Assembly (NCBI GenBank): GCA_044892505.1
Contig: CM097882.1
Location: 321,966,001-322,030,000, forward strand
Reading direction: 5' to 3'
Length of the DNA stretch: 64,000 bases
Origin: Schmidtea nova
Taxonomy: Eukaryota
Under the pieces are notes generated by a model. That model saw only the letters and a program-made list of their open reading frames with translations, was not told the DNA's origin and searched no databases. Positions 8,358 through 34,499 of the stretch are shown here, piece after piece. A program made the position numbers and the translations under genes. Within the stretch, counting starts at the first letter, position 1; each line of letters begins with the position of its first letter.

Positions 8358-11300
8358 CTATACCATCATTATCGTCTTTTCCTCGTATCGTTCTTCATCT
8401 TCTATTTGTTTCCAGAATTCTTTACCTTTCGTTCTTCTTTGGAATTCTTTCTGTATCTCTTCTGGTATTTCTATTCTTTGCTTCATAATTTTAATATCTG
8501 GCCATTGTATGGCTGTCGCTTTGTTTCTCTTTCTGTATCTCCAATATATTATCATGCTTGTCGTCATTATCCCATATGCTATTAATATTCCTATGCTGAT
8601 TAATCCTATTACTGTTTTTCCACGGTTTGTTTCTCCTTTATTCTGGTTCGCTTTTATCTCATTTTGGGTTTGAGCCTCTGGCTTCTTCTCTTTCTGTATT
8701 TGACTCTTAACTTTGTTCATTACTTCTTGTGTAGACCAATGGCGGTTTAGTAGTTGTTTGACGTTATTTTCTTTTGTTCGGTTCTCCACGTTTCCTGGTT
8801 CGATCTGTTGTTGTAGTTTCTCTGAGATCTGATATAATCCGCATTCTGGTTTTTCTGAACCTTTTCTGGTGAAGGTACATATCGCGTATGTCCTATTTAC
8901 TTCCATTTTCTTTAATTCGACTTTTTCTTTATTCTTTATTTCTTTACAGTGGGTTAGGTTGTCTTCTTCTCCTTCTGGGTTATGCTTTGTCCAACATATT
9001 CCTTTAACTGTCTGATCGAGTCCTGTTAATGTCAGAGTTCTTTCTGTCTTTGTTAATTCTTCTTCATCGAATTTCAGTATCTCTCCTTTTTGGAATGTCT
9101 TGCAATGCTCTATTCCCTCTTGGATTCCTCTCTCCCAGATACATATACTTCCTTCTTCATTCATTTGTATTTCTTGTATTTCGATTTCCTTGTTTGTTCG
9201 TGATTCGTCGCTTGTCTGAACTTGGTATTCCTTCCTTGGTTCGTTGTATGTTCCCCAGCATAGTTTGTTGCTACTTGTTTTCCTTATTGTTATGGCCATT
9301 TGTTCTATTATTATTCCTTTATCGATACGTTTGGACATTGCTAGTATTAATGCTATGCATACGCACTCCTGTTGGGGTGATATTCTTTCTCTCGTTTTAT
9401 TGGTGCTTTTCTCTCCTTCTCCTGGTTTGTTCGTTGTATTTTCCTTCTGAGTTGCTGGTCGATCTATTGTGTTTTTGATCTCTTTCTTTGTTGGTTTTAC
9501 TTTGTACCACTCAAGTCTGGGCGTTTCATATTTTTGACATACGACTGTCTTAGGTAGCCCTGACTTCTTTTCCTTTCCTATTATGCATATCCGATGCATG
9601 ATTCCTCTATCCATCCCTTCTATTCGTATTATATCCTGGTCGGATTTTCTGATTATGCATTTTAGTGGGTTATCTTTCCCAATTGGTTCATCCTCTCTAT
9701 TCCAGCATATTTTCTCGACCTCCTGGACATTTACTATTTTTATCCCTGTTTGTAGGTTTGTTGCTTCTTCCCTATTGATTAATGTCAATATTATTGTTAG
9801 ACCCAACCATTTTGAACTCTGCGGTAGGCTTCTGGTTCGCCTTTCATATTTTTTCTCTTCTCCTTTAATCTCTTTTATTTCCTTGTCTTTGTTGTTTATT
9901 CCTAGTTTTCCGCTTTTTGCTTCTTTCTTCTTTGGTTCTTCTCGTGCTTCTTCTTCTAGCATTTCCACTCCATGGCTTGTACTGTCTCTATTTGTCCATT
10001 GGGTTACCGATTTCTTTGGGTTTATCTTGCGTATCCATATAGCTGATAACGCGATTATTACTGGTATGGTCGCTGTTAATATTCCTAAGCCAATTAGTTC
10101 TTTAATTTCTTTATTCTCGTCTGTTTGTATAGATTCGCTTTGGTTGAACATTATTCCGTATTGTCCCTTTAGTTTTCTCATTAATTGTTCCCGTTCTTCT
10201 TGCTTTCTTTTGACTTCCTTGATAACTTCTTCGGGTGTCCATTTTGCTTGAGGGTCGGTTATGGTTTTTTCTACGTCCATTTGTTCATTCGTTTGGCTTA
10301 GTTCCCTGAATTCGAGTTTCCTTGTTATTCCTTTTGATGTTGCGTTCGCTGGTGTATAGTAGGTTTCGCATCTTTCTTGTTGGTTTCCTAGTGCGTCCGT
10401 TTTTTCTATTGTACATACTTCGTATTCGCTATTAAATTGTAGTTTTTCGATCTTGATTTCTTTATTTGTTTTTCTGCACTCTCTTGATTGTCTTCTTATA
10501 TATTTCTGGACTATTATCCAACATATCTCCAATGTTTTATTCTCTATTTTCCATAATGTCAGAGTTGCTGATGTCTTTTTCTCGGATTTTGTCGTAACTT
10601 CTTGGCTTATCGGTTGTTTATTGTTTTTAAAGGTAGTGGTGTACTTCGGTTTCCCTTTGTTTCGTTGTCTTCTTTTATTTTTTCGTGTTAACGTTTTAGT
10701 TCTTGTTCCGGATGAAGTGGTGTATATTCCGCATTCTAGGTCGTTTATCGTTATCTGATCATTTTTCTTTACGAGACATATTTCATAAGTTTGTTTACTT
10801 TCTAAACCTTTTATTTGTATCGTCGTTGCTCCTGTGCTTGTTCGACATTGTGGTGTCTTTCTTTCATTTGTTTCTTTTTCGTACTTCCTCCAGCATACTC
10901 CTTTCACATTTGGTTCTATCTCTTTTATTTCTAATGTTATGTTTACTTTCTGTTTGATTTGTTTATTTCTCTTCCTCGTTCTCCTTCTGAACTTTATTAC
11001 TTCTCCAGGTTGGAATGTTTTACATTTTGTGGTACCTTTCTTGTTTGTCTCTTTTTCTAATAGGCATAGTTTGTACATCTTATCTGCTTTTACTTCGGAT
11101 ACTTTAATTACTTTGTTTGTTGTTGGTTTTCGACTTTTCCTTATTTCATTTACGCCGATTTCCTCGTTATTCCTCGCCCAACATTTTATGTTAGTGTTCT
11201 GTGTATCTTCCACTTCTGTTATTGTCATAGTTTCAATTTCTATTCCTTCCTCTAATCGTTTTATCATTATTAGTATGAGTGCTAAGCATAATACCTCCAT

Positions 11301-14300
11301 TTGGTAAGACACTCTTTCGGTTTCGTTTGTGGCAACTCTTGCTTCGGGCCTCTCTATTGTAATTCGTAGGGTTGGTGTTGTTTGCTTATCTATTGCCTGG
11401 GGTTTTTTGTTTTCTGTTCCCTGTGTCTCTGTTCTTCCACATTTTCCGAGGATGTAATGTCCTTTGGGTGACTGTTGTATTGTCATGGCTGCTTTAGGTG
11501 TTTGGTATTTTGCACATGCGATTGTGTTGTGTGATCTTGGATGCTTTTGTTTTCTAACGGTGCATATTTTGTACCAGGTATCTAGATCTAGGTCGTTGAT
11601 CTCTATGATTTCTTGCTCGTGTTCTGAGATTCTGCAATCCATCGGGCTATTTTGTTCCGTGATTTTGTCCTTTTTCGACCAACATACTCGTTCGATTCCT
11701 TTTGCGTTTTTTATTTGTATTATTGCCCTTTCTTCACATGTCATTCCTTGACTTGGATTAATTAACGTTAAAATCACTGTTAATAATAGTAACTCTGGTC
11801 TGAAGAATGGTTTTATAGTTGATTTATAGCCTGTTCTTTGGGTGTCATTTTTATCTCCTTGGTCGTTTTTTCCTTGTTCTCCCTCTTCATCTCTTTGTTT
11901 TTCGTCTTCCTTTTTCTTTTCTTCCTTGTCTCGTTTCTTGTCTTTTCTCTCGTTTTCCTCTTTATCGGGTGGTTCGTGATCGTTTGAATTTTCTGCGTTG
12001 TTACCGTCGTCACTATCTGTGTTGTCATCTCCCCCTGGCTCGTCGAAAATGTCGTCCTCGACATTGATTTCTTCTATTAGTTTCGCATACGCTAATGTCG
12101 TTAGATTACTTGCCTCAAATTCTTGTGTTTCTACCTGCTCCGGTATTACTTTGTTAGTGGATTTATGTTCCAAGATTTCCTTTTTGGCCTTGATCCAATT
12201 GTTGATGTATGTCTTCATCAATTCTTTCCATTTGCCTGTGTATTTTTCTTCTTTCGGGCTGGTTGTGATTCTTAGATCCTTTCTTTCCATAAACATCTTC
12301 AATATCTCTGGCCATTTATACGTTATTAAGGCACTTCTTATACACCAGTTTTGGTTATGTTCTGTAAACTTATTAATCCTGAATGCTGGTTCGTTAGTAT
12401 TAGGATTTATCCACGTAAGTATTGATTCTGTTAGTTCGACGTTGTTCATCATTGCTAGTACACTGGGTTTCTTGACCGTATCAGTTAGGTGATCTATTTC
12501 TTCCTGATTTGGGACGGTTTTTAGGAAGTTGACCATTTCCCAATTATGTGTTAGTAACGCTACATCCAAAATTGAATTATCTTTATCTGTTTTACCTGTA
12601 AGTCCTGCACCTGCTTTGTATAGTTCCTCTAATACCTTTGTTTTCGTTTTGGCCCTTGCTGCAAATACCATAAGTGTATCTCCTTTCTCGTCTATCATAT
12701 TCATTTTGCTTCCGCAATTTAGCATTACTCTTGCAATTTCCATTACTTTTCTATCTTTGCCATTTCGTAGAGCTCTATGTATGGGCATTATTCCGTCCTT
12801 TGGTAGTAAAAATGTTACTGGCATCTCCTTTTTTATTATTACTATGTCGTTTCCGTTGTAAGTTCCTTTTGCGTATGCGTGTACTTTTTCAACTAATGCA
12901 CCGAGTATTTCCAGTGCATGTTTACTATTCTCGAATTCTGGTAACAATTCTTTTGCTTTTTCTTGTATCGCATCTAGTCTAGCTTGGTATGGTGCTTCTG
13001 CTTTAAAGAGTGGTGTGAGTTTCTTGTTACTTTCTCTTTCTTTTTTCTCTAAAACCTGTTTGCATTTTTCGGGATGGTTTAAGATTTTTACTAATTCCTC
13101 ATATTCGCTTACTATCGTCTGGTATTTCTCGTTAAAATTGCTTATGTCTTTGTATGTTATTAGTTTATCAAGTGGTTTCGCACACCATTTCCTAATCTTA
13201 TTGAATAAGGCTTCCTTCTCTTTATCGAATTTGTATTCTTCTTCATTCTTTGTGATGTTTATGTTTCCTCTGTCTAATAAGGTTAGTAATGTCTTCTGAT
13301 CACAAGTAAATTTCAAAAGGTATCTTAACAGTGCGTTTTGTCCTTCGCTGTATACTTCGTTTATGTCTAAGACCCATGTATCATCTTCTGGTCGTTTCCA
13401 TTTGATTAACTTACGGATCGTGTTGCATTTACCAATTTTGATGGCCTCTTTGATAATGTCTCCTTTAACTAGTTCGTCTATCTCCCAAGTGGAGTTAGCT
13501 ATTATGTATTTCAGCATTGGTTGGTGAGAACTCCATATTACGTGATTTAGCACTGTTTTATCTTCTCTATCTCGTTCTGTCCAACTGAAACGGGCTTTTA
13601 TCAACAGATCTACCATTTCTTTATCTGCTTGGTAGATGGCTGCTGTCATTAATGGAGTTTCCTGTTCACGATTCCCAACGTCTAGATTTTGGTTTGTTTC
13701 TTTTGCGATTTTCAAGAATTCTTTTGCTCTTTCAATGTTTTTACACTGAATCGCATTATGTAAGGCTGGTTGTCCTCCTACATCTTTTAATAAGAGTATT
13801 TCAGGGATTTTTATCAATAATTCAGAAATAATTGGTTCGGTTGGTAATCCTTGTGCGTAACGGCTAATTATGTGTCTAATGTCCTTTGATATGCCTGCTT
13901 CGTCTCTAACGTGCCATCTTCCCATTATCTCTCTCGCCTTCAATATGATTTCTTTATTTCTGATTTCCTTTTGTCTTATTTCTGCTTTGTCGTCTTTAGT
14001 TGCGTTAGCTCTGAGCATATTTATCCTGGCTGTTTGTGATCTAGTTATTATTCGATTTTCTGGTGTTGTAGTTATCGTTTTAGGCACCTTCTTACATCTG
14101 CAGGTGTTTACATATATGGGTCGTATTAACGGTCGATTTATTAGCTTAACTTTGACATTATTGTCCTTCTTGTATATAATTTCATAAGGTCCTCTTCCAG
14201 GTCTTTGGAGTTTCTTAACAGTTCCGGGTATTATTTCGGGAGTTTCTATTATCACCCAATCTCCTGGTTTTAGATCGTTCGCTTTAACATTTTTCTTCTG

Positions 14301-17300
14301 GTCGTGTAAATCCTTATAACTTTCCTGATAAAATTTAATGTTGAGTTCTGCCGTTTTCCATATTTCCTGCATCCTTTCCTTGAATTTGGTTACGTAGTCG
14401 TCATCTTCCATATATTGCGATAATGGTGGCTGATACTCTAAATCTATGGGCATGTTGCATTCTCTTCCATACATAAGTTGAAATGGGCTTAGTTTTGTTG
14501 CTGCATGTATCGACATTCGGTATGCCATTAAACATAATTTTATGTATTCATCCCAGTCAGTTTGGTGTCTGCTGACGTAGTTTGATAACATTCTAATCAA
14601 TGTGCCGTTGAATCGCTCCGTTTGTCCATTCGTTTGCGGGTGATATGGTGAAGTTCTCAATTTTGCTATTCGGAAATAGTTTGTCACCTCGTTCAATAAC
14701 TCGCTCATAAAATTAGTTCCTTGGTCTGTGAGTATTTGTTTTGGAGTTCCGTATCTGCAACATATGTCTTCTACTAGAATCTTTGCTACGGTTTTTGCTT
14801 TTTGGTCTTGCATGGCAAATGCTTCCGGGAATTTCGTCAGATAATCCGTTATCACCAATATATAAATATTTCCGTTTAAACTTTCTGGTAATGGTCCTAT
14901 TACGTCCATTGCTATAGTTGTCATTGGCTCTGCTGGTATCGGCATTGGTTGTAGCGGGTTCTTCCATTTCTTCCCACTATCCTTTCTGGTTGCGCAAGTT
15001 AGACAATTTTTAATCCATTCCTTTATATCTTCTTCCATTGTTCGCCAATAATATTTTTGTCTCATACGGTTTATGGTCTTTTTCTCGGACATATGACCTC
15101 CCAATTTCCCATCATGGTATTGGATCATTATCTCTTTCCTTCTGTTTTCCGGTAAACACATCAATCTCTTTTCCCCGTCTTGTATTAATAACCATCCTTT
15201 ATTTATTATGTAGCGATGTTGATATTTTCCTATATGTTCCTTTAATTCCTTATTATCCTTAAATACCTCCATATTTCGAGACGTTAGGAACTCTATGATC
15301 TGTCCCAATTCTTTGTCTTCTTGTTGATCTTTCTTAAGCTCGCTAAAATCTAGATCCTCCGCTATTAATACACAAATTCGTTGTACATCAGGATCGGTTA
15401 GTTCTGGAAATGTCAGTCTTGACATACAATCTGCATTCGCATTCGCTCGTCCTGATTTAAATTTTATGTCTGGTGAGTACTCCTGTAACTGCATTGCCCA
15501 TCGCATTAATCTACTGGATGTTTCCTTGTGCTGTCCTAACCATACAAGCGGTTGGTGATCTGTTGTTATGCAGATGATGTGACCCCATAGTAAATATTTA
15601 AAGTGTTTAATAGCTAATATAATTGCTAATGCTTCCCGTTCTGTTACTGAGTAATTTTTCTCATGCTTTTTGAATGTCCGGCTATAATATCCGATTACGC
15701 GTTCTTTTCCTTCATCATCGTATTGCCCTAATACTGCTCCTGCTGCATATCCGCTTGCATCCGTTGCAAGTAGGAATGGCTTCTTAAAGTCTGGGTGTAC
15801 CAATATGGGTGCGGTTATCAGTTTATCTCTTAATGTCTCGAATGCTGTTTGTTGTTCATCTCCCCATATGAAGGATACATCTTTCTTTACTAGTTCCTGT
15901 ATAGGTTTTGCGATTCCAGCGTAATCTTTTATAAACTTTCTATAGTATCCACATAGTCCGAGAAATTCTTGTATTTGGGTTATTGTTTTTGGTACTGGAC
16001 ATTCTTTTACCTTGTCGATATTTCTAGGATCCGGTTCTTTTCCTTTTGCTGACACTATATGTCCTAAAAATGTTACTTTCTCTTTCGCCCAATCGCATTT
16101 TGATGGCTTGAGTTTTAACTTCCATTGTCTAAGCCTAACGAATACATCTCGAATATCCTGTATGTGTTGTTCGAATGTACTAGAGTAAATCAATAAGTCG
16201 TCGATGTAGACCATGCACTGCTTTATTCCGTGGGTGACGAAATTCATGCATCTCTGAAATGATGCTGGTGCGTTCGTTAATCCAAATGGCATCTTTCGAA
16301 ATTGATATAGGTCTCTACCGATGGTAAAGGCAGTTTTCTCCTTATCTTCTTCCTTCATTTTTATTTGCCAATATCCGCTTTTCAGATCTAACGACGTAAA
16401 ATATGCTGCTCCTTGTAATGTTAATAGCATTTCATTAATGTCTGGTAATGGGTAAGTATCCCTTTTTGTCACTGTATTCAATCTTCGATAGTCTATGCAG
16501 AATCTCTGTGTTCCGTCTTTTTTCTTTACCATTACCACTGGAAATTGCCAGGGTGAACAACTTGGTTCGATTACTTCTGCATCCAACATTTTCTTCACTT
16601 CTGCTTCTGCTACTGCTTTCTGTGCTTCCGCTAATTTGTACGGCCTTAATGCAATTGGTGTTTCATCTGTTAATGGTATTGTATGTAGTGTGACATCACA
16701 TGTTCCTAGATCTAAATCGGATGCTGCAAATATATCCTTATACTCTATCAGGAGTTTTTCTAGCTGCTTCCTTTGATCCTCATTTAATAATTCACTATCA
16801 ATATTCCAGGTTGGTTCTTTATCTTTCTCTGCTCCTTCTATTGGCAGTTCGATATCCATCATTGGGGTTAATTTACCTAATCTTTCGTTTTCGTATATTA
16901 TTTTGTCCTCTTCATCGAAGTTTACTACGTTTATTGGGATTTCTCCATCATCGTTTATGTTAACTAGTCCTCTTGCCATTGGCAACGCTTTTCTTTTCTC
17001 GAATCTCTTACTTGGTTCGAAAATCATATCCCCTTGGATTGTCGGATCTATTTTTACGTAACATATTTTCTCCTTTCTTGCGGGTATTATCATTTGCTTT
17101 GAACTTGTCACTTTGGCTTCTATTGCGCATATTTGTCCTGTGCGATCTTTTAGTCTCATTGTTCCGAGATCGATTACAATCTCTTTAAATAGTGCTGGCA
17201 TCAAATCTGTTCCGATAATGCAAGGTACGCTTAATGCTGGTATGACAGCTACGTACGTATCGATTTCCGTGTTTAAATGGCGTATTTTTACCCACCATCT

Positions 17301-20300
17301 TCCTGCTACTTCTACAACTTCTTTGCTACATGCAATTACATGGACGTTTGTCCTTTCTATTTCTCGTCTTTGCTCTTGTGGTATCCATTTGATGTCGATG
17401 GCGGAAATGTTTGCTCCCGTGTCGATCATTGCTTCGATTTCCCTTCCGTTAATCTCTATTGTCGTGGTTAATACTGGACCTGTGTTTGATGACATTACTG
17501 CGATCGTGTGTGTATCTCCTTGTGGATCTACGCTTCTACATCTTCTCATTTTATAATCTTCTGGTATCATGGGATATACATTTGTCATTGGCATCATTTG
17601 CATCGTGCTATTTTTTCCTCCTTGTAGTGGTTCTTGATACATGGTTGGTGGAGGTGCGTAACATTTCCATGCGTCGGCTGGATTCTTTTCGATGTATTGG
17701 GGTGCTTGGTTCTTATACACTTGTCCTCCCTTATAGTCGTCATCGTCATCGTCGTCGTCACTTGAATCATTATAGGTTTTATATCCTTTCATCCTCTCCC
17801 ATAAACCTTTTCTTTCTCTCTTGAGCTGTTGTCTTGCTTGTTCGTCATTCATTATCTTTCTAAATTTTCGTCCTACTTCTTCATCTGTTCCCTTCATTTT
17901 TGCGAGTATCTTCAACAATCTCTTTATTCGATGTATGTCCTTTGAGTGTCCGTGCAACACCATCGTTTTCGCAAGGAATGGTAAAAATCCTACTACCATT
18001 TTCCAATTCACTTTCTTTTCTCTCTTGTAAATATCGAAACACGCTAACATTTGCGTTATTATCACTCTGACGATTTGTATTATTAATATAACTCCCAGTA
18101 TTCCGGCCATCATTTGTCCGAATATCAGAAATCTTCCCCACATTGCTTTCATCATATTTTCGGTGGCTTTCTTGAAATGTGCTGGTGACAACAACAGTTC
18201 ATAATTCGGTCCTTCTCGATAATCCGTTCCTCCTGTTATCGTTACGATATTTGACAGTAATGCTTCTCTTCTTGCTGGGAATAATATATTCTGCCTTGCT
18301 GCTTCTAAATCTTTCGGACTATATATTCCATTGTTTGAGACATCTACGTCGCTGAATTGCCTATCCTTTGACAACTGCATTAGCTCGAATTCTCTTGGTG
18401 CTATCACTTCGGATCTTCCTGGGAACATAACCCATTTACCATCTGGTTTTTGATAAAGCGGTCCATACGCATTACTACAGTTGAATGGATTTGGTTCAAA
18501 CCCTGGTGGATTTATGATTCTCGTCACCGGTTGAACGTATCGTACTTTTCCTTTGTAATCGATTTCTAACTCATTTGTACAGGTTCCAGGTTTCAACTGT
18601 GTTGTTGCTGCTAGCGATGCATGTGTCTTTTCGCAGATGTATACATACATTGCTTCTCCAACCACCCTTCCGAAATGTCCTTCTCTCAGTGGTAATAATG
18701 GCATCGCGCTATCTGGATTCGTAATCGCTACGGCTAACTTTGTCTTTAATATTTCTCGATTCAGTATACAATCATTATTGATCAGATCGTAATACACTTT
18801 TTGTAATGAGGCTTGTCCTCTATGGAATAGGAAATCCATTTTATTATTCACATATAGGTGTAGTTTGATATCCATTGTGTCGATTTTGGGTTTCGCGTTT
18901 GGCACTTCTTGTTTTGACACATATATTCCTGGATAATTCGTTTCGTATACCGTTGTACTACACTTAAGGGTTGCTTTCCCTTTTATGAATCTCATTCCCA
19001 CATCTTGATTTGTGGTTATCAACACTGTTGGTGTGGCTCTCATTTCTATCCGTTTTTCTCTATGATCCGGTTTCAGTTGTCTTTTATTCTCTAAAGCTTC
19101 CTTGAGGTGCTTTGCTCTAGCTTTGTCGTCATCGTCTTCTTCCTGAAACGTTTTTCCTTGAATTTCGTCGAACTTTGCTCCTTGTAGCAGTTGTAACTGA
19201 CATTCGTTTACCTTTGGTTTGTACACTAATGTTGACATTCCCGTTTGACACATGCTCCTGTCGATTTTACACATGGATAACGTTTTCATTTCTCCCGTTG
19301 TTGGTTCGAAGAATGCTTCATAGCTTTTTAATTCGACTATATACGTATCCATTACTACTAGGTTGGTTGCGGGTACTCCGAATATCGGGTAGGTTTCTCC
19401 TTGACAATATCCTTCTCCTCCCGTAATCCGTCCTGCTACATAGTAGGTTTGTTGCAGCATCATTCCTGGCTTTCCTCTTATCTTGATTTTATCTCTTGTT
19501 GTTACTTCTCCATGTTTAAACAGTGCTTCGCAGTCTTCTCCTTGTAACACGATTGGTTCTCTTTCCGTTCCTGGCATGACAATTGCTGAATAATGTCCTC
19601 TCCCGCAGTAGAATGCGAATCTCGTCTTCTGCACTTTACATTCATTCACCATTGTCTTTATGAGTTCTGCTTCTTGATACACGTGGTACCATTGTTCTTT
19701 TTTAATCTTCTGCAACTCTACTGGAGTTGCATCTTTGCATTGCTCCGTACCTCTCAATGAATACTTTTCTCCTAACTTCATTTGGTCGCAATCAAACACT
19801 TCGAATGCTGTTGCGCTATCGGTGCTAATCATCCATATCAACATCATCATTATTATAGAACTCAGATTCATTGATGACTTTGCGTTTCCTGTTCCTGTTT
19901 GTTCCTTCTCTAACTCTTCCAATATTTTTTCGAATTTCTTTTTCATATTCTTGGCTTGCGTTTTCTTCTGGTTAGTTTTTATAAATGTTTCCCATCCTCC
20001 TTTGTTAATGACGTAGGGTTCTATTTCTCTAGCTATAATCTTTGCGGTATTTTTTATATGTCTCTCTAATGCAGTGGGTTTTTGTCGACCTCTACTCAGT
20101 GTTAATAGATTGTAGATCGTGTATGCGATGGCTATTACGTATTTATTATCAGTTTCCGCTCCTTCTGTCAATTTCTTTATTAACATCGTGGTTCCTTGCC
20201 AGTCTAAATGATTTGACTTCGTCTTTTCTTTTATGAATTCCGGTAAGATGGGTGCGATTGCGTTGTGTAGTGACTTCGCCTTTTCGCTTATCTCAGTTAT

Positions 20301-23300
20301 ACGCCAGTATTTTCTTAATTCCGGATCAATTATTGCCAATATTTCCATTATTGTTTTCGATATCCATTCCTCCCCCTGACATATTGGTGTTGTCTCTTTT
20401 TCTTTCATCTCCGCAATTTTATTTAGTTTCTTTAAACATAATTCCCATTGATCTTGTCTCTTTTCGTCTTTATTTCTTACAACTACATTCGCTAGGTCTG
20501 TCTTGGGTCTACCTCTAGGTCGTTTATCCATTCCTGTGCCTGTTTCCACAAATCTTGTTGCTCGTCCAGTTTCTTCCGTGACATCTCTTGGTTCGTTAGC
20601 TCTCTCTTCCAACCATCTTTCCATTTCCTGGGTTAATTGTACATTTTCGACATTTGCTCTTCTCGTTTCGTCTTCTGTCAAATCGTTTATTTCTTCTATT
20701 ATTATTTCTTCTTCGACTTCTGTTCCTCCGGTGTTGGTTATTTGTATTGTCGTAGGTAATTCTTGTATTCTTTCGAAAATATTGTCGTCTTTTTCCTTTG
20801 TTAATTCGGTTAATTCTTCTATCATATCGTCGCTGTCTGTAAATATTTCGTCCACGTCGTATGGTTGTGGTGGAGTCCTTTCTCTATTTCCTCTGGGTGT
20901 TGTCTCAGATCGTCTCGAACTTGTCCCTGGTGTTAGTGCTGATTTCATCGGGCTCGGCGTACTTATACTTCCGTGTGGTTTATGGTTTTCTTCTTTACGT
21001 TTCAATGGTTGACCCGCTATTGCTTCTACTGTCAAGGTATTCATGAGGTCTAATTGTGCTGGTGTTATTCCGATTTCCAAACTGTTATCTAATGATCGTC
21101 CTTGGTGTTGTAAATGGAATGGTGGTTCGTATCTCAATTTCTTTTTAATATCTCGAATTTTTTCTGCTATCCCTACCCACAACTCTTCCTTATCCTTGTT
21201 TGGGTATATTACTCTTAGATGTACTTTCTGTGGAATTTCCTGTGAGAATTCTTGGTTTCTCCATTTCCTAATTACATGGTCTAGTTGTTCCGGGCACCAC
21301 TCGTTAACTCTTTTATATTCCGCGATTGCTTTTGCTACTTTACGCAAGCATGTTATATCTTCCCCATTTACCACGAAAAAATCTGCGAGACCCTTTATTA
21401 ATTTTCTCTTACCGTGCGCATTAGTTTTTAATATTTCGACGAATTCTTCCGTTTTTTGCTTTTCCCTTTCTAACCACATGGCCGCTGTTTCTGGTCCATC
21501 TAGGTCTATTGGCGTAGCTTTCCTTGTCACCATGCAAACCCTTCCTATCTCTGGTTCGCAGTCATCTTCAATTCCTCTTTTATATTCTTCTTCATATTCC
21601 CCTTCTTTTGGTTCCCAACATTTTCCTTTCTCGTTCCATTGTTTTTCTACGGGTGTTCGTATTCGTCTGTTGAGATTGAGTTCTTCTAATACATTTTCCC
21701 ATTCCGGCCAAATTCGCCAATTTCGATAGATGTCTACTATTTGTTGTAATTTGCACACAACTTCTTTCCGTCGTTCCCGTTCTCTTTTCTCGTCTTTAGC
21801 AGTTTCTCTGGGTGTATCGTCCATTCTGCTAACGTGGATTGTTTGGTGATTATCCCATATACCGATTTTATATAATCGTCTCTCATCGTGATCCCATAAT
21901 ACATGTTCGTTGTATTGTATGATTATGTCGTCTTCCCATTCGTCTTCTGGTTCTCTTTGCACTAGTGTCTCGTTGATGACATTTATTAATTCTTTAATGG
22001 TGCAATCCGCTACCACTTCAATTTCTTTGGTGTCTTCATTAGGCAATTCTACTGAAATTTTTAGATCTGTTATTTTCCCTTGTCTGAACATTGTTTTTCC
22101 CATTTTTGCGATTAATTTGTCGTGTGAGATCTGTGACCATCTCGTGTGACTTGTGTCACGTATGCACTCAATACATCGTTTCAATTTCTCGTATTCGCTT
22201 CTCATTAACTCTTTTCTATGTTTTTTGACTTGTGGTATGATTTGTTCTATCAGGGAATTTAGATTCTTTCGCAAAACTCGTTCTTTCTCGTATTCTAACC
22301 GTGGTTTTATTCTCCTTTCGAAGCACGCGTTTGCTTCCCTTGCAACTTCTTGTAGGTTCTCTTCTTCTTTTTCATCACATATTGATAACAGGGTTATTTC
22401 TCCTGGCCATATACCTGTTTCTACTAAGTGAGTTCTTTTCTTTACGAGTCTATTCTGCGAATAGATGAATTTGTTTTTGTATGAGCTCCCTAGTCTATCC
22501 TCTACCCATCTGTAGATATCGTCTGTAAATGGAGTTTTGATCCAGATTCTTGGTGTAGACGTATTTATTATTATTGAGATGGTGTAATTGAGGAGTGGTT
22601 CCTCTATTAATTTCCCTACGTATCGATTCAACATGTCTACCTCCCGGTCTTGTAACCATTCTTTGTAGTTCATTTGTAGTAATGCTTTCATGAATTTCCG
22701 ATATTGTTTCTTGTCCATGAACTCTTCGTTATATATTACTTCTAGCGAGTTATCTAGTAATTTCTGGATTTCATCTACTTTTATCTGTGTAGGTTCTGAG
22801 GTCTTTATTACTTCTCTCTCTTTATTTTCGTCTTCGGATTCATTTAATATGTCTCCTGCTAGGCTACTGATATCACTATCTTCTTCTTCATCGGAAAACT
22901 CTCTGGTGGTATTTCTTAGCATATTAATATGTGCTGTTTGGTTCGTTTCCCCTTGTATATTCTCCGTTGGTTCTGGTTCGTTTTTGTCAATTTCTGGTGT
23001 TGGTTCACTCTTATCCTCTATTACTTCGACTTTTTCCATTTTCTTTCCCAACTCCTCTATCTCTTTTAAACGTCTTCTTATCATTTTTCCTTCAAATATT
23101 CGCCGGATTCGGGTTTCGTGACGTATTGGTGGTGGAATTTCTTCTGGTTCTATTTCTTTAATTCTCATCACATTTCTTTTTGTTTCTACTACTCCCATGT
23201 TTTCCCATATATCCGTTAATTTCAATTTTACTGATGGTGCATCTCCTATTTGTAAGAACGCTTCTCTGGGCAGTTTTGTCGCTCCTGGAATCATCTGGTT

Positions 23301-25307
23301 TACTTTATTGAACAGTATTTCCACCTTTTCTTTTGCGTTATATTGGAATCGAAACATATGGTCGTTGGGCATGATTACCATCATTCCTTTTTTCCAAATT
23401 TTTCTTCTCTCTTCCTGGTTTATCTCGGTTTCCACTCCCTTTTCTGCTTCTTTTTCTACTTCTTCATCTTTTTGTACTATTTCTTTTCGACTTTCGTTGT
23501 CGGCTGGATTCGGGTCTATCGAATTCATTTCCAGTGTGGTTTCTTTCTCGCGAGTGTCTGTTTGGTTTGTTGCTCTTAGCATGTTAATTCTTAGAGGTTG
23601 TCGTTCTCTTTCTTGCTGTTTTTGTTCATCCTCTCTTTGTATTCTTGCCCATTCCTGAGCGTGTCGTGCTTGACTTTCTCGATTCAATCGTTCGTTTTCG
23701 CTTTCTATTTTTCTCATCATGCTAATTTGCTGTTGATTGGTTTGCGGATTTCCTCTCGTCGTATTGTTTATAAGTTCCGTCAATCTTTGGACTTCTTGCA
23801 TTAAATGTATTTCTTTGGGGGTGGTTTTGTTCTGATTATTGTTATTATTGACTTGTTGGTTCCCATAATCTGGTCGGTTTACGGTATTTGCTTGATTTCC
23901 GTAATTTGGTCGGTTCCCATTACTCTGCCAGTTTCCTCGTTGATTACTTTTTTGTCCGCAATTTCTTGAATAGTGACCAGGTCGTCCGCAATTATAACAG
24001 ATTATTGTAGAACATCTGCTTTCCGAGTGTCCTTTGACTCCACATTTTCCGCAATTCAAATTTTGATAGCATTCTTGCTGCCAGTGTCCCAACTTCCCGC
24101 ATGTTTTACATTGTTTTGTTTGTCTTTGAGGGTTGTAATTGTTTTGATTTTCAAAGTTCTGCACTTTATTTCCTTCATTCCTTCGTTGAGGGGGTGGTCG
24201 GTTTAATTGTTGCGAATTTGGAATATGATTGTTGAGATTTACTTCTGGTTCGGTTTGCGCTGTGTCCATGACTAAATAAATTCTGCCTTCGCTTCCTATC
24301 ATATGCAATTCAAATCGGTTAGCTGTTTCTAACGCTTGATCTATGGTTTTGCATCCTTGACATCCCACTTGTGCTCTTATGTCGGGTCTTCTTAATCCTC
24401 CTATGAAGATGGCTGCCATTAACTCCTCGTTTATTGGACCTCCATCCTTGAATACCGATTTTGCTAATTTTTTCAGTTCGCTCGCGTATACCGCATTAGA
24501 TTCATTCATCTTTTGTTTCCTCATTGAGAATTCTATGAATGCCTCGCTTAGCACTTTATTTATTCCAAATGTTTGTTGGAAAAAATCCTTTATCGCTGTC
24601 CAGCTTGTAGGTGGATTGGTACCATTTTTTGCTTCCAAATATAGGTCCAATGCACTATCTTTCAAGTATAACTGTATTCTGCTTACCGTTGTTTCAGCTT
24701 TCCATTTGCATACTTCCACGAATATGCCAAATTCTTTTAAAAAGGTTTCTAATTTACTCGCATCTCCGTTGAACGGTTCTCCTGAAAATTTATCCTTTAT
24801 TTCTTCTCTTGGTTCACCCATTTCAATTCCGCTGTCTTGAGTTATTTTACTTTCGTTTCCTCTTGTTTCTAGTTCGTTGTTATGTTCGTCTTCCGTTTTA
24901 CTCGAGCTTGAATCGCTTTCTGTTTCTCTTATTCCTTCGTTATCTGATATTATACTTTCGTTATCACTCGCGTTGATTTCTATCTCTGGTTCTACCTCGT
25001 TTTCTACTTCTTCGATATTATCGTTGTTAGTCTCGTCGCTCTCTGTTTCACTTGCTTGGTTCTCCTTGGGTTCGGCTTGGTTTTCTTTGTTACTTGAGCT
25101 GTTGCTTATTATTGACAATTTATCGTTCTCGGTAATCGATTTATCTCTTATTATTTTCCTCGATTTACTCCCTTGTGGGTTATCTTTGCCGGCTTTCTGC
25201 TTTTTTGTTGATTTTGTTGTAGTACTAGTTTTGTCTTTTTTATTACTGTTGCTATCGACTTTCTTTTCCGTTGGCTTTACTACGACACTCTTTGCTCCTT
25301 TTCTCAA
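8358..25307 (-). CDS. 5649-codon Gag-accessory-Env-Pol-accessory polyprotein
   Basis: One stop-free frame of 16.95 kb. The listed start is TTG; first in-frame ATG is at 24821 (codon 163). Subdomains listed separately. Confidence 0.95.
   Translation of the reverse strand: [5649 protein letters not shown]
8541..9815 (-). CDS. Polyprotein: membrane module B (signal-like segment, 3 Cys-containing FN3-like repeats, TM)
   Basis: [16 protein letters not shown]; repeats of CW..C..I.I..l....Y.IC..C..Y/F; internal [35 protein letters not shown] then RYRKRNK. Collinear with module A. Confidence 0.6.
10032..11800 (-). CDS. Polyprotein: membrane module A (signal-like segment, 4 Cys-containing FN3-like repeats, TM)
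   Basis: [69 protein letters not shown] resemble the FN3 L..(P).T.Y strand motif; TM [22 protein letters not shown] then RKINPKK. Confidence 0.62.
12400..13790 (-). CDS. Polyprotein: two blocks of ankyrin repeats
   Basis: [33 protein letters not shown]; second block [33 protein letters not shown]. Confidence 0.85.
14060..15200 (-). CDS. Polyprotein: integrase (HHCC, DDE core, GPY/F)
   Basis: [50 protein letters not shown]. Confidence 0.97.
15410..15800 (-). CDS. Polyprotein: RNase H
   Basis: [43 protein letters not shown]. Confidence 0.96.
16040..16810 (-). CDS. Polyprotein: reverse transcriptase (gypsy type)
   Basis: [46 protein letters not shown]; YIDD at 16197-16208; FLGH. Confidence 0.98.
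17130..17490 (-). CDS. Polyprotein: aspartic protease
   Basis: [12 protein letters not shown] (DTG at 17415-17423) and CIIGTDLM. Confidence 0.95.
17950..19871 (-). CDS. Polyprotein: envelope glycoprotein, class III fusion type resembling chuvirus G / herpesvirus gB-like retroelement Env
   Basis: Signal [22 protein letters not shown] then [86 protein letters not shown]; C-terminal TM (~18040-18143). Cys spacing matches my recollection of chuvirus-type glycoproteins. Confidence 0.8.
19975..20370 (-). CDS. Polyprotein: Bcl-2-like helical domain
   Basis: [16 protein letters not shown] fits BH2 (L..WI..NGGW..F); spacing from KLTEG to GGW is 61 aa versus 60 from ELFRDG to GGW in BCL2; BH1 NWGR not conserved. 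Confidence 0.55.
20502..20525 (-). other. Polyprotein: AT-hook motif KRPRGRPK
   Basis: Exact match to the AT-hook core PRGRP with basic flanks (aa ~1595). Confidence 0.6.
21020..23390 (-). CDS. Polyprotein: four ubiquitin-like (beta-grasp) domains at ~23180-23390, 22378-22590, 21830-22065, 21020-21228
   Basis: [45 protein letters not shown]..QTIHV and [43 protein letters not shown] align by eye to ubiquitin; [29 protein letters not shown] fits the ubiquitin C-half; the first ([13 protein letters not shown]..) is weakest. Confidence 0.55.
23958..24110 (-). CDS. Polyprotein: nucleocapsid, three CCHC zinc knuckles
   Basis: [42 protein letters not shown]. Confidence 0.97.
24290..24800 (-). CDS. 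Polyprotein: Gag capsid-like domain
   Basis: [58 protein letters not shown]..FIGGL typical of gypsy Gag. Confidence 0.85.
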
Positions 25308-25923
25308 GGGGATTACTTTTGTATACTCAATTTTCCTGTTCTATCTCTTATCGTTTTTCTGATTCTTCTTGCTTGATTGATTGATTTGATTGATTTGTAT
25401 ATCTAAAATACAAAGGTCCTCAACGATACATTATTGTTATCGTCGCGCTTTTATTCCCTTTCTTTCGGGATTACTTATTACTGGGTTTTCATTATTTCCC
25501 AATTCCCAGGTTTCCCTTTTATTTTTAGTCTATTTAAATTATCTATAGACTGGTCACAATTATCTATTTACGTCGTAATAATTATCTATACTTTATCCAA
25601 TTAATTACTTTTCCCACAGTTTCCCAATTTATTGGTCGCTCGAGCGCTCTAATTCCCTGAGTCTTTCTGACTCGTTTATCATTATTTTATCATTTCTATT
25701 CATTATTCCCTGCTAGCAATCGTTTTACTCATTCTGCCGGTTGTTCCGGTCAGCCCAAAAAATTTTTACTATTCTCCTTGCATGCTTTACTTAAGGTTGC
25801 ATAATCAGCTTTACTCGCATTTTCTTAACTACTGGTGCGCACTACTCTAAATCTCGTCGACGATTATACTAAGGGTCTATATTCCCTCTATTACTATTTA
25901 TCCGGATATATCTATAGTTCACT

Positions 25924-26115
25924 ATGGCTCTTCTGGCCTCAATTTTATATCTCACATGGCTCTATTGGAATCAATTTAATCTCTCAAATGGCTCTCTTGG
26001 CCTCAATTTAATCTCTCAAATGGCTCTCTTGGCCTCAATTTAATCTCTCAAATGGCTCTCTTGGCCTTAATTTAATCTCTCAAATGGCTCTCTTGGCCTT
26101 AATTTAATCTCTCCA
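25924..26115. repeat. 32-bp tandem array, 6 copies (partial 7th at ~26140)
   Basis: Unit atggctctcttggcctcaatttaatctctcaa at 25924, 25956, 25988, 26020, 26052, 26084. Confidence 0.95.
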
Positions 26116-26155
26116 TAACGCCTAGCTAGGTCATTCAATATGGCTCATTGGCCTC

Positions 26156-26505
26156 AACCCTTTTTTTCAAGGGACAAACCGCTAATAACCCTTTGTTTCA
26201 AGGGACAAATCTCCTAACCCTTTGTTTCAAGGGACAAATCTCATAACCCTTTGTTTCAAGGGACAAATCTCATAACCCTTTGTTTCAAGGGACAAATCTC
26301 ATAACCCTTTGTTTCAAGGGACAAATCTCCTAACCCTTTGTTTCAAGGGACAAATCTCATAACCCTTTGTTTCAAGGGACAAATCTCATAACCCTTTGTT
26401 TCAAGGGACAAATCTCCTAACCCTTTGTTTCAAGGGACAAATCTCCTAACCCTTTGTTTCAAGGGACAAATCTCATAACCCTTTGTTTCAAGGGACAAAT
26501 CTCCT
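26156..26505. repeat. 29-bp tandem array, 11 near-perfect copies plus 1 degenerate
   Basis: Unit aaccctttgtttcaagggacaaatctc(a/c)t, period 29 from 26187 to 26505. Confidence 0.97.
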
Positions 26506-26984
26506 AACTTTACTTAACCGGTTAATCACAATTCCCTACTTCGCTAGCGATTAAAATTTCTCAGCTGAGTTATAACTACTTCTATGCGAGCTGACTATGC
26601 ACCTTTCTATTCTTTCAAAAATGTCATTTATCTCTCTATTCTATCCTAACTAAATTCTGATCAGTCTGCTTCAACTTTTTATTTATTTTTCTTATGCGCG
26701 CTTTACTCCATCAAGATTTCCCTATCTCTCTCCCCAATCAAAATATACAAAAAGATCGCGTTGGTCCATTAATGCAGGATGTGGTGATCAGTCACATCAC
26801 AAAAACTTTCCAACATTTGCGATGGGCCCCTTTCTATACACCCTGACTAGGTTGATCAATCGGTACCTCCCAATGGGTTCTTATCGGACTACTTTGTAGT
26901 AGCTCAAAAATTATTTATATATTACAATTGTACCCATGATTTCATCATTAATAGACCAACAAAACTCCACTTAAACATTATTTA

Positions 26985-27446
26985 TTATAAATATACAATA
27001 ATTTTATCGTCTATCATCAGGTTGCACATAGGACATAGGTCGCATTTGCTGGCACATATTTTACAAAAGCGAAAATGTCCGCAAGGTAAAAACATAATTT
27101 GTATCTCGTTATCCTCACATATATAGCACTGTCGGTATTTTTTCGCTGCTTCTACCCCCTGCGCCCTCCATTGATTGTATGTTGGGGTTAATCGTTGTTC
27201 TATTTGCCTGCACTTAATGTTTAGTTCTGCATTTTCTAATCGTGCTCTGTACCATTTGTAGCGGGTCTCTATGTCGATTTTTCTTGTTCTTTCTGTTATC
27301 TTTATTAATTCATCTGTTTCCTCAGTCTGTGTTGTGGGTTCTTGAAATTCAATTTCTCTAAATCGGTTTATTTTCTTGCCAATCGTTTCTAATGTTTCGC
27401 TTTCTGTGTTGAGGAATTCTTCGATTTCTTTCAGTTTTTCCTCCAT
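26985..27446 (-). CDS. Coiled coil plus C-terminal IAP-type RING (C3HC4) E3 ligase, no BIR domain
   Basis: CYICEDNEIQIMFLPCGHFRFCKICASKCDLCPMCNLMIDDKIIVYL matches the IAP C-terminal RING pattern C..C......vFlPCGH..C..C.....CP.C..I. Confidence 0.85.
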   Translation of the reverse strand: MEEKLKEIEEFLNTESETLETIGKKINRFREIEFQEPTTQTEETDELIKITERTRKIDIETRYKWYRARLENAELNIKCRQIEQRLTPTYNQWRAQGVEAAKKYRQCYICEDNEIQIMFLPCGHFRFCKICASKCDLCPMCNLMIDDKIIVYL

Positions 27447-27769: not shown

Positions 27770-28243
27770 AATTTATGCTGGGTTCATGGAGGGGTTAGAT
27801 GAAAAATGCTCTAACAATGACTAGGGATCCCTCATCCATGATCATGCATAAAATTGCAATTCTACACTCAAGCGCCCTGGATTATTTCCCTGTATAATCA
27901 AGTTGGTGATGCGCAGGGTGGTTAAACAATGATGGGCAGGTGAGCACTATCGCTAGTACTACTCCCCATTTATGTTTACGGGTTCATCGCTGCCGTTAGA
28001 AGGACTTATGCTTTAATCATCTACTTATGTATTCCGCGTTAATCTTTCAGAAAATTTAATTTTATTATTGCTCAGTCTGCGAGAAGTATTTCAACGAATG
28101 CTCGCTTAATTATTTAATTATCTCTATTCGATATTTTGTAAAATGAATTTATACTTTTGTTCTATCTTTACCTAATCATTGGTAAAGCTAATTAAATCAA
28201 TTTAAATGAACGATAAAATTCTTAAGCCAATACAACAATTTAT

Positions 28244-28840
28244 TCAATTTTTAATGAGTTCGGTAAAAACTCCCGCCGGAGGAAAAATCTCTGTCAATAA
28301 TGCCTCCTCGGTCATCTGATGTAGACCATCGACTTGGCTTTGTAATTGCTGGGCAAATAATTTTCTCTGTCTCCGCCGTTTCTGCCCAATGCGCTTGCGT
28401 TTCTGGTGCGCATTTACCGATGAGGTGGTTGAATTTACTGCAGGAGCTGTCTCATTCCGATTTTCGATTAGATCTGCGACATCCGTACCAATGGAATTCA
28501 CAGTCTTCTTCTCTGATGTCCAAGCTTGGTACGTAACTGGACGGATTTGCTCTCTGAGCTCCCTCTCAATATATGAGGCAGTTACGGAATGGAGGCATTT
28601 TCGGAGTTCTATCTTTGTAGCCTCCCATTCCATTTGGTACTCGGCTGCAGTCTGTTGGGCGCGCTCGGTTTTACTGATTTGCTCCTTCATTCGGGCCGGA
28701 GCAAACCAGCTTTTGCGCAAATATGCAATCTGTGCCTCTGCTTTGATCAATTGTGCCTTGAGGAGACCCACTTCCTTGTCCTGGGCCCTCCGAATCCGCC
28801 ACATCTTTTCCAATTCCCTCTGTATCGAATCGGTGGTCAT
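28244..28840 (-). CDS. LTR-encoded 198-aa protein (5' LTR copy)
   Basis: Identical translation to 1613-2209. Confidence 0.65.
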   Translation of the reverse strand: MTTDSIQRELEKMWRIRRAQDKEVGLLKAQLIKAEAQIAYLRKSWFAPARMKEQISKTERAQQTAAEYQMEWEATKIELRKCLHSVTASYIERELREQIRPVTYQAWTSEKKTVNSIGTDVADLIENRNETAPAVNSTTSSVNAHQKRKRIGQKRRRQRKLFAQQLQSQVDGLHQMTEEALLTEIFPPAGVFTELIKN

Positions 28841-29026
28841 TCTATAATTGGTTTAGGATATTTACTTCATGATTAAATGATGTGAAAAAATGAAACTGAT
28901 TATAGGGTTATTTGGCTACGAATATGAATTATTAAAAACACAATACTAAAACTCAAAACAACAAAACAAAAACACTGCTGAATATTAATATTTAATCACA
29001 ACTTTTAAAGATTTGACAATCAGTTC

Positions 29027-29506
29027 TTATCTCCGAAACAGGCTATGCAGTTCGCTGTTAATCGGTTTCTGACGGAGACGAGCCCAAGAGAATGAGGGTT
29101 GTCCTTTCTGGCACTCCTTGCCGAACGGTTTTCGTGGCAGGAATTCGTGTAGGCCTAGTTGGCATAGTTCCCGACGAGGGATATGCCCCCAATAAATTAC
29201 ACGGCTTGTCCGTCCATCGGTGTCCTTGATCAGTACGACAAGGCGGCCAAATTTGTTCGAGTACGGCCTTTGAGAAATCGGCCAGTTCGGTCCTCCTCGA
29301 TAGAATATTTGGTCGTGCCCTCCTGTCCATATCGAGAACGGGCATTTTCGGCCAAACCCCTGTCGCCACTTATACATTTGGCAGTTGAGGGTCCGCAATA
29401 TCGATGCTGGTAGATCCTTGAGCTGCGAGATATTTCCATTTCGTAGATTCACTTGTTCCATATTCCGTAGTTGAGTCAATCGATTTATAAGTTCAGCTGT
29501 CGACAT
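29027..29506 (-). CDS. LTR-encoded 159-aa protein (5' LTR copy)
   Basis: Identical translation to 2396-2875. Confidence 0.55.
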   Translation of the reverse strand: MSTAELINRLTQLRNMEQVNLRNGNISQLKDLPASILRTLNCQMYKWRQGFGRKCPFSIWTGGHDQIFYRGGPNWPISQRPYSNKFGRLVVLIKDTDGRTSRVIYWGHIPRRELCQLGLHEFLPRKPFGKECQKGQPSFSWARLRQKPINSELHSLFRR

Positions 29507-30621
29507 CTATATTACATTTATTGGATATAAAATATCTGAGTTAAGGGGGGAAAATTCGTTGATAATTTAATTATACTGTATATAATCACAAAAGTTACTT
29601 AAAAATAATAAGGTAAATTTTCTTTCTCTCCGCCGTGATCTACCATGGTCGGAATAAAGAGTTCATAATTAATCCTGTGCTATGTACAGCAGTCAGGAAA
29701 TTATAAAATTTATTCGAAAATTCTCCGCGCTATATACAGCGATCGGAAGATAAATTAGATATCCGCGCCATGTACGACGATCGGTCTATTTTTAGAGTTT
29801 CATGACTTGATGTGGATTCTCCGTCGCATTCCAATGCGATCGGTATTTATCGATCGGGTGACGCTGTAGGTGAGATACTAATTCCGAATGAAATCGGACT
29901 TTAACCTTCATTGAAATTTTCCATTTTATCGAAATTATATGAATTAGTTTTATTTATTTATCCTTATTCTCCATGCTGGAGGTTCAAATTAGGCTCATTT
30001 TTCTATGCGTTATGATGCTGAATACACCCTACCCTGGGGTGTCTCCCATTACCCAGCTACTCTCCCTATTTAGCCCTCGACACTCGTCCTCTGTGCAACC
30101 AAATGATGACTTTTTACTTATCGCCAGAAAACTGTCTGGACGTATTCGCATTATCGATATTCTGTGACTGAAAATTTTACTCGACTAAATAAGCATTAAA
30201 ATTCTCTAATCTCGCTGATAAATATCTAGTTAAATTTGAATGATGTAATTTAATTATTTCAACTACCAAATTAAATATGAAAACCGGAAACAATAAAAAG
30301 GTTGAACCGCCATGTGAGACCCTGAGGCCCCACGACGACGACTCGGACTCCCTCGCCGCGTGAGCAGCATAGGAAGTATAGCTATATGCATTAAAGTGTC
30401 AATAAAAATAATCAATGAAAAAATAAAATAACGTTTACATATAAACTTTTAATTAAATAAAAATCATGGGTACATCATATAAGATAACATAAAAAAATTA
30501 CTTCCGTACTTGAATGTGTGGTTCCTTGTATGAAGTTCGGTTCTTTCAAAAATTATTACTCAAATCAAAGTTTAGTCTTGATTGTGAGTGAAAATGTAAA
30601 ACGTCTCTGTCTGTGATTTTT

Positions 30622-30643
30622 GGATCGGTATTTATACTGATCC
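30622..30643 (-). promoter_or_regulatory. Candidate LTR promoter TATA box (TATAAATA at 30629-30636) inside a palindrome
   Basis: Plus strand ggatcggtatttatactgatcc. Confidence 0.55.
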
Positions 30644-31012
30644 GTCTGGTTGGATTGACCAATCAGGATCAGGCCGTCCATCAAAGTATTTTTATTATTT
30701 TATTCTAATCTAAACATTATTTTGTTTCCTTTTCCGGTTTCTCGCTGGGTGGTCCTGATTTTCCAAGTAATTAATTAATTATTTGTACTATTATTTTATT
30801 TAATTCTATTTTTTCTTATTTCAGGCCCCCTTTTGCGGTTGTTTACCGGTTTATTTTCAAAATTTCCTTTTACTGAAAATTTATCAATTATTATTTGTCG
30901 TTTTATTGTTATTTTTAATTTGTTTTTCTTGCTATTTTTATTTTTATTATTTCTTTATTGTTTCATGCTTTTGTTCGTTTTATTGTGTTTTTAGGTGATT
31001 TGGCGGGCCCAA

Positions 31013-31014
<2 letters not shown>

Positions 31015-31051
<37 letters not shown>

Positions 31052-34158: not shown

Positions 34159-34499
34159 GAGATTTATTTTAGATTTGTTTTACTGGGTTAGTTTTTGGTA
34201 TTTGAGGGGGGGGGTTTGGTTTAAAAAGTAATTAGTAAGATTTTGTGATTGGGTTTTTAAATGAAATTTGAAAAGTCTTTGTGACTTTTTATGAATTGCT
34301 TTGTCTTACAAATATAAATTTTGGAAAATGTTAAATAGTTGTTGTGCTGATGCTCATATTGATATTAAACAGTGTTCTGTTCAATGTAAAAACAATGAAT
34401 ATAAATCTATTGATATTAAAGGGAAATGCTATGATGATTTATCGTGGAATTTTACAAAAGCCACTACATCGGATTTATATAAGTCATTTAATGGCTTTA

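Follow-up and report, generated by a model that had tools for sequence, protein, structure and literature searches.

What is a long tract of apparent surface-protein repeats doing at the very end of a retroelement polyprotein? The question is raised by a 64,000-nucleotide (nt) stretch of Schmidtea nova DNA (GCA_044892505.1, contig CM097882.1, forward-strand positions 321,966,001 to 322,030,000; hereafter the window, whose own numbering is used throughout), in which a Burro-like giant Ty3/gypsy element carries a single open frame encoding, in order, Gag, a Bcl-2-like segment, Env, protease (PR), reverse transcriptase (RT), RNase H (RH), integrase (IN), ankyrin repeats and a set of membrane modules resembling fibronectin type III (FN3) domains. 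These modules, referred to here as the tail, occupy 8358–11810 on the minus strand and make up the last 1,150 residues of the frame (amino acids (aa) 4511–5660). In the reading favoured here, given a probability of roughly 0.45, the tail is a predicted type I membrane glycoprotein that has undergone duplication, is likely to be released as a pair of proteins and would stand on particles as the attachment partner of the element's class III fusogen.

The tail is organised around seven Cys-Trp (CW) dipeptides, at aa 4553, 4720, 4816 and 4940 in module A and aa 5212, 5361 and 5449 in module B, whereas 10,000 shuffles of the tail never produced more than five. A spaced CW..IC..C pattern matches six of the seven repeats (A4 being shorter), has no match in the other 4,513 aa, and turned up once in six of the 10,000 shuffles and never more than once. 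The two modules are 29% identical over 400 columns (E 1e-55) and collinear, A1 pairing with B1, A2 with B2, and A3 with B3, which confirms the arrangement of four and three repeats described in an initial annotation of the window; the LT(V/I)ILTLIN, C(L/I)ALIL and W(T/S)xxEV motifs, and both anchors with basic residues behind them, were likewise found as it had claimed. Its CW..C..Y.IC..C consensus proved looser, the second Cys being absent from A2 and B2 and the Tyr from B1 and B2 (each present in five of seven repeats), and its placement of the modules directly after integrase was mistaken, as about 750 aa of ankyrin repeats and acidic linker intervene before the first leader. The parts of the tail are as follows, with ratios of non-synonymous to synonymous substitution rates (dN/dS) where available.

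11745..11810 (−): leader SP-A (aa 4511–4532), a predicted internal signal peptide with an 11-residue apolar core, a basic N-side and S-Q-G at −3 to −1, presumed cleaved
11493..11744 (−): repeat A1, FN3-like by homology (dN/dS 0.10)
11247..11300 (−): inner leader H2 (LCLALILIMIKR), a homologue of SP-A that is likely to be translocated without cleavage
10989..11246 (−): repeat A2, without the C'-strand Cys; placed by repeat homology, the model with H2 being of low confidence
10713..10955 (−): repeat A3, matching Fn3_Dep-1_1st at E 0.0013, below cut-off
10347..10583 (−): repeat A4, modelled as a six-stranded FN3-type sandwich, without a module B counterpart (predicted local distance difference test (pLDDT) 79.7; VIA Z up to 8.5)
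10101..10346 (−): stalk A, with the WTPEEV segment and two N-glycosylation sequons common to the sister family
10032..10100 (−): anchor TM-A (transmembrane), followed by RKINPKK (dN/dS 0.047)
9759..9818 (−): leader SP-B (aa 5175–5194), a predicted re-initiating signal with Glu at −3, cleavage uncertain
9513..9758 (−): repeat B1, paralogue of A1 (33% identity, E 4e-20)
9318..9371 (−): inner leader H5, paralogue of H2
9066..9317 (−): repeat B2, paralogue of A2 (34% identity, E 6e-15)
8823..9056 (−): repeat B3, paralogue of A3 (29% identity, E 2e-13)
8541..8615 (−): anchor TM-B, a run of 25 apolar residues with RYRKRNK behind it
8358..8540 (−): predicted cytosolic tail, with Val as its last residue before the stop

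That the repeats adopt an FN3-type fold is highly probable, by modelling for A4 and by sequence homology for the other six, and to this extent the fold named in the initial annotation stands. AlphaFold2, supplied with 46 element-derived repeat rows (three of them weakly related rows from the G families described below), returned a six-stranded model of A4 with a predicted TM-score of 0.66. Aligned with VIA-align against 48,161 chains, this model matched FN3-containing structures, judged by title or established knowledge, in 50 of the 50 rows listed (Z 6.9–8.5, three chains reaching Z 8), mostly with a root-mean-square deviation (rmsd) of 2.1–3.1 Å over about 70 residues; the best match was an sDscam FNIII domain (Z 8.5, rmsd 2.3 Å, 72 residues). 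The top Foldseek match (TM-score 0.62, probability 1.0) was also FN3 in kind, with the irisin structure 4lsd among the rows, and a library of viral structures gave no match at E ≤ 0.001. A profile of all seven repeats, run against 1.84 billion proteins, found 56 at E ≤ 0.001 (best 2.7e-10), and a Pfam scan of 18 of these assigned fn3 to 16, no family to one and an unrelated family to another. Searches of protein databases with module A, the whole tail or the 46-row repeat alignment yielded no relative at E ≤ 0.001, and sequence searches of the PDB gave weak rows only, including a Tie2 FN3 domain at E 0.04. Three bacterial-looking surface proteins (P0002, P0004 and P0034) with tandem FN3 repeats have a GVCW strand-C motif in common with the tail repeats, a likeness taken as evidence of fold alone and not of gene transfer.

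Residues 1–12 of the A4 model fall under pLDDT 50, and its alignments to isolated FN3 domains begin near chain residue 14–16, so that on the strand numbering we assume it apparently comprises strands B-C-C'-E-F-G, with strand A missing or unresolved in the model. The CW dipeptide would then lie in strand C, and the Cys positions would fit C-C' and F-G disulfides. An assignment of CW as the B-strand Trp was considered and set aside, since the W-to-Y spacing, the profile matches and the model alignments all put it in strand C; a B-strand Trp occurs only in A4 (W4930, invariant), and an F-strand Tyr in five of the seven repeats.

The tail is very probably a lumenal ectodomain on a type I anchor, as judged from its hydrophobicity, charge bias, sequons shared with the sister (T) family and a layout repeated in 13 of 13 related elements. 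Each of the four leaders has an apolar core of 11 residues, the anchors are 19–25 residues long with basic residues behind, and neither predicted cytosolic tail contains a Cys or a sequon. Two sequons in stalk A align with those of the T family, the tails being 37–38% identical. Leader pairs are mostly alike (z 4–14; SP-A and SP-B against H5 only 1–2) and unlike the Env signal or the anchors, and H2 and H5 therefore appear to have arisen through duplication of a leader-plus-domain unit. An internal signal should follow an anchor or a cytosolic chain, which holds for SP-A and SP-B but not for H2 and H5: each of the latter follows a translocating domain with no anchor between, and keeps KR and acidic residues at the expected cleavage position. 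In H2 the KR(L/I) and acidic residues are retained in all three lineages, and the sister family lacks small residues at −3 and −1. Passages of PMC2114505 describe an interior signal in a translocating chain as neither cleaved nor halted.

From these features the following sequence of events may be proposed. The Env anchor would return the chain to the cytosol, where PR, RT, IN and the ankyrin repeats would be made, and likely separated by the element's protease; SP-A would restart translocation and be cut by signal peptidase; H2 would enter the lumen uncut, leaving A1–A4 as one ectodomain; TM-A would stop transfer, SP-B restart it, H5 pass through and TM-B stop it again. Exactly two products are thus predicted, with somewhat better than even confidence, and the three or four also allowed by the initial annotation (two to four) are unlikely, H2 and H5 having neither a preceding anchor nor a cleavage site. 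A proposed bond between the Cys of H2 or H5 and the unpaired CW Cys of A2 or B2 fitted the window's family but was dropped, as the sister family has four Cys in A2 as well as a Cys in its first signal.

Several points tell against the favoured reading at these two steps. With respect to fold, a Z near 8 may reflect a common arrangement, according to the VIA tool's own note; Foldseek gave no match at E ≤ 0.001 (best E 0.05); no repeat passes the Pfam FN3 cut-off (best Fn3_Dep-1_1st, 19.2 bits against 26), single repeats doing no better; and the AlphaFold2 model of H2 with A2 is poor (pLDDT 50), its fold search giving no clear match. With respect to the membrane, on a crude scale H2 comes out as insertable, and while SP-A (S-Q-G) and the T-family signal fit the (−3,−1) rule as we take it to be, SP-B, which ends in E-E-A or E-D-A, is a poor fit with Glu at −3. 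H2 and H5 have an acidic residue before the core and KR after it, a stop-transfer pattern. In the relevant passages of PMC2174215, second signals more than 60 residues downstream behaved as stop-transfers, and in those of PMC2114505, insertion in vitro was not initiated by signals preceded by at least 111 residues, which is a problem for SP-A.

The same features are drawn on by an unlikely alternative, in which SP-B stays uncleaved and the product is a single three-pass protein bearing both ectodomains, or in which H2 and H5 halt transfer or are cut to give three to four products. The poor SP-B site makes the single three-pass product possible, and H2 and H5 are homologues of SP-A that carry the charge pattern of stop-transfers (passages of PMC2174215), an invariant Met preceding H2 in module A. 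Such membrane crossing by H2 and H5 is disfavoured because strict alternation would place A2–A4 and B1 in the cytosol despite their invariant paired Cys, the shared sequons and the basic residues after TM-A; the conserved KR(L/I) and acidic residues of H2 and the sister family's want of small −3 and −1 residues also speak against the alternative, and H5 has no Met.

The tail is not peculiar to one copy. When module B was compared with its own genome, all 95 scored matches, drawn from 3,672 first-look candidates, covered it at 88–100% identity, which rules out an assembly artefact; 21 of them lie in frames no shorter than 5,600 aa, and five have a stop within the match. For analysis of selection, 20 of the 95 were picked for long open frames and lower identity, a choice biased towards intact copies, and joined with the window copy to make 21. 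The seven CW are kept in 20 of the 20 further copies, and across all 21 no Cys or Trp of the tail varies apart from Cys5326. Pairwise dN/dS over the repeats is 0.20 (codon bootstrap 0.15–0.26, from pairs that are not independent), and by part is 0.15 for module A, 0.26 for module B (intervals overlapping), 0.50 for the polar linkers, 0.12 for the ankyrin region and 0.023 for PR-IN. The tail modules are under purifying selection. A captured fragment of a host FN3 receptor, hitchhiking in the polyprotein without benefit, might be suspected from a tail evolving about ten times faster than Pol, from the faster rate of B than A (albeit with overlapping intervals) and from the choice of copies with long open frames; with dN/dS well below 1 (upper bound 0.26), invariant Cys, retention across families whose tails are 37–38% identical and the same layout in three clades, this very improbable reading is largely refuted.

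Relatives in the same genome were found by Pfam-family searches, from which six Env, three Bcl-2 and four MATH matches were fetched. A tree of the RT-RH-IN region (10 rows) separates the window's family together with T, the F family and the G families with full support, and a predicted type I membrane protein, laid out as signal, ectodomain, anchor and basic tail, follows integrase in all 13 elements examined (four of four T, six of six F, three of three G), spanning three deep clades; all 13 carry Env or belong to an Env-bearing family. The T family is 77–83% identical to the window element over Env-Pol, and has a single four-repeat module with leader, H2, stalk and anchor but no module B, so that only the window's family shows the duplication. 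In F-family polyproteins (about 3,400 aa, 37% identical), integrase is followed directly by a signal, then about 320 residues and an anchor. Polyproteins of the G families (about 3,000 aa) continue from a signal into a single domain bearing an L.PxT.Y..C...C motif, after which come a stalk, rich in Thr/Ser in two of three, then an anchor and a basic tail. An FN3-type ectodomain is suggested for F by an Atlas lead (0.83–0.89) and for G by the motif together with an fn3 match at E 0.087. In a blastp comparison with the window polyprotein, neither F nor G gave a match to the ankyrin region.

Further open reading frames (ORFs) accompany these relatives. Downstream of one F-family polyprotein is a 483-aa ORF (L034:5186–6634, plus strand) for which Pfam gave nothing at E ≤ 1, and whose DxE, GHDL and HxALED motifs we take to be DEDDh exonuclease-like; at three loci (L052, L055 and L057), ORFs of 649–898 aa overlap the end of the G-family polyprotein in another frame; and at one T-family locus (L068–L070) two env-pol-tail units lie in tandem, each of them interrupted by stops or frame changes.

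What, then, is the tail for? An attachment role is favoured because env usually occupies the slot behind integrase, because that slot is filled in every env-bearing clade examined, and because a domain on a stalk suits a receptor binder. More tentatively, planarian Burro-type elements may be enveloped viruses with two-component entry, in which a class III fusogen is joined by a host-derived FN3 attachment glycoprotein that grew from one to seven domains through leader-plus-FN3 duplication. The remaining difficulties concern this functional step: the class III fusogens VSV G and baculovirus GP64 attach without a partner; the other cargo (TRAF, RING, Bcl-2-like and ankyrin) points to host signalling; the comparison was confined to Env-bearing elements and families; and the F and G ectodomains align with the tail repeats at an hhalign probability of 0.2–1.3%, which is not significant.

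Ranking close behind is a possible role on the host cell itself, in which proteins of the same fold and topology would act not in entry but as receptor mimics, decoys, or adhesion or superinfection-exclusion factors at the cell surface, alongside the TRAF, RING, Bcl-2-like and ankyrin proteins. Val is the C-terminal residue in five of the six proteins compared, three with Ser or Thr at −2, which presumably resembles a PDZ-binding motif; ectodomain size differs widely among families; and look-alikes in the ESM Atlas, a lead only, are small host FN3 and TM proteins (FNDC5, FNDC9 and LRRN4CL; scores 0.77–0.82). A cargo of signalling and apoptosis regulators is described for Burro in passages of PMC6431247. 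Set against this, the post-integrase slot is the usual gypsy env site, the order being GAG-POL-ENV in passages of PMC13524379, the protein is retained in F and G, where the ankyrin match was absent, and neither a ligand nor a host template was identified.

Comparison with known systems places the attachment reading in context. FN3 domains of the FLRT/LRRN/ELFN type have an F-G disulfide, and host type I FN3 proteins such as FNDC5/irisin, FNDC4, FNDC9 and LRRN4CL resemble the tail in their signal, FN3 domain, stalk, anchor and short tail, and in an L..xxxY.(I/V)C....C motif; the tail repeats differ in having an extra C-C' Cys pair and apparently no strand A, in lying inside a retroelement polyprotein, and in showing no significant sequence match. 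The polyproteins of flaviviruses (prM/E), alphaviruses (E2/6K/E1) and bunyaviruses (Gn/Gc) are processed by signal peptidase to release fusogens and their chaperones, and the tail resembles them in having an anchor, TM-A, with a re-initiating signal, SP-B, behind it. In the tail, by contrast, no anchor precedes the inner leaders, and the fusogen sits ahead of Pol, about 2,100 aa upstream of the modules. Herpesvirus gB works with the separate receptor-binding gD and gH/gL, which would be a functional analogy only, without homology, should the attachment reading of a class III fusogen with a separate beta-sandwich protein hold.

The Burro elements of planarians (Burro/GYPSM1) are described in passages of PMC6431247 as about 30 kb long, with long terminal repeats (LTRs) and one ORF of about 5,000 aa. 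In common with the window element they have a Gag with three CCHC knuckles, a Bcl-2-like segment, an in-frame env that separates gag from PR, then PR-RT-RH-IN, ankyrin repeats and MATH/TRAF; the window ORF is longer (5,660 against 4,873 and 5,140 aa), and its TRAF ORF lies downstream. The Burro section of that paper mentions no post-integrase FN3 or membrane module, the likeness to Burro1–4 being judged from their published description. GAG-ENV-POL errantiviruses of Platyhelminthes, with an Env of the herpes simplex virus gB type, match the window element in placing class III env between gag and pol, and in their many near-identical intact copies; the main text of PMC13524379, where they are described, contains no occurrence of fibronectin, FN3, Burro or ankyrin, and its passages deal with a single envelope protein. 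None of five search terms occurs in PMC12440569, and literature searches found no description of a post-integrase FN3 module, although the original Burro genome paper, the Repbase GYPSM1 entry and preprint supplements may bear on novelty. Burro and its env are already published; the tail appears to be a second membrane-glycoprotein module, so far unannotated, in an element of known kind.

Env-bearing LTR retroelements have been described with one envelope protein, and a second, selected surface glycoprotein present across a lineage would, if true, separate attachment from fusion, in parallel with herpes- and paramyxoviruses; should the host-surface alternative hold instead, a retroelement would be remodelling its host's cell surface through receptor mimics. 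Either would give a handle on the intercellular movement and tissue preference of these abundant elements, BURRO1 being intestine-enriched upon de-repression (passages of PMC8532177). The family series of one, about three, four, and four plus three domains would record how a polyprotein gains domains through leader-plus-domain duplication.

The element is a Burro-like giant Ty3/gypsy (Metaviridae) by its LTRs, domain order, cargo and the published Burro description: it has long LTRs, PR-RT-RH-IN order, a single polyprotein with env amid gag and pol, and ankyrin and TRAF/MATH cargo. Its LTRs, at least 3.2 kb long and flanking about 25 kb, are identical over 3,222 nt at an offset of 26,631, so the insertion is young. 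Along the frame, Pfam recognises zinc knuckles, a Monjiviricetes-type fusion glycoprotein, protease, RT, RNase H, integrase and ankyrin, in that order; the Bcl-2-like match is weak (E 0.15). The main features outside the tail are these.

27794..31015 (−): 5' LTR, comparable part, identical over 3,222 nt to 1163–4384
8358..25340 (−): polyprotein, a single open frame of 5,660 codons, first Met at 24821
18057..19871 (−): Env, between gag and PR in the same frame, with signal (aa 1824–1847), class III fusogen ectodomain and anchor (aa 2405–2428), by PF24664 Monjiviricetes_fusion (E 8e-72) and hydrophobicity
14061..17465 (−): PR-RT-RNase H-integrase, by Pfam RVP, RVT_1, RT_RNaseH, Integrase_H2C2 and rve (dN/dS 0.023)
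12351..13883 (−): ankyrin-repeat region between integrase and the tail modules, limits approximate (Ank_2, E 6e-14)
1163..4384 (−): 3' LTR, its end running into an N stretch at 395–1162

A motif resembling I-N-M-L recurs at nine places in the frame (aa 354, 511, 539, 585, 805, 1267, 2613, 3321 and 3773), several at domain borders, among them one just after integrase, and these are likely candidate sites of protease cleavage.

Smaller minus-strand ORFs surround the polyprotein. Downstream lie an intact TRAF-like ORF (6407–7783; RING, zf-TRAF and MATH), whose 476-aa counterpart in the T family is dispersed over many sites; two charged, coiled-coil-like ORFs without clear family (5233–6294, 353 aa; 7877–8233, 118 aa); and a 189-aa ORF (4588–5157), possibly a third small membrane protein, that begins like a signal, continues into a long hydrophobic stretch and has a basic tail. 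At the matching position the T family has an ORF of 176 aa, also with a hydrophobic segment. Between the 5' LTR and gag is a 153-aa ORF (26985–27446) with a C3HC4 RING finger (PF13920, E 1e-11), which we take to be IAP-like, and the leader upstream of gag (25892–26566) holds 32-nt and 29-nt units in tandem arrays. Two ORFs inside the LTR (198 and 159 aa; 1613–2209 and 2396–2875), repeated at 28244–28852 and 29027–29506, matched no family. Elsewhere in the window, two plus-strand frames at 34295–35100 are presumably like pieces of a proteasome alpha subunit, and fragments at 51872–52900, 54650–55231, 57255–58063 and 58869–60038 presumably resemble pogo-, Bel/Pao-, Tc1- and Penelope-like elements.

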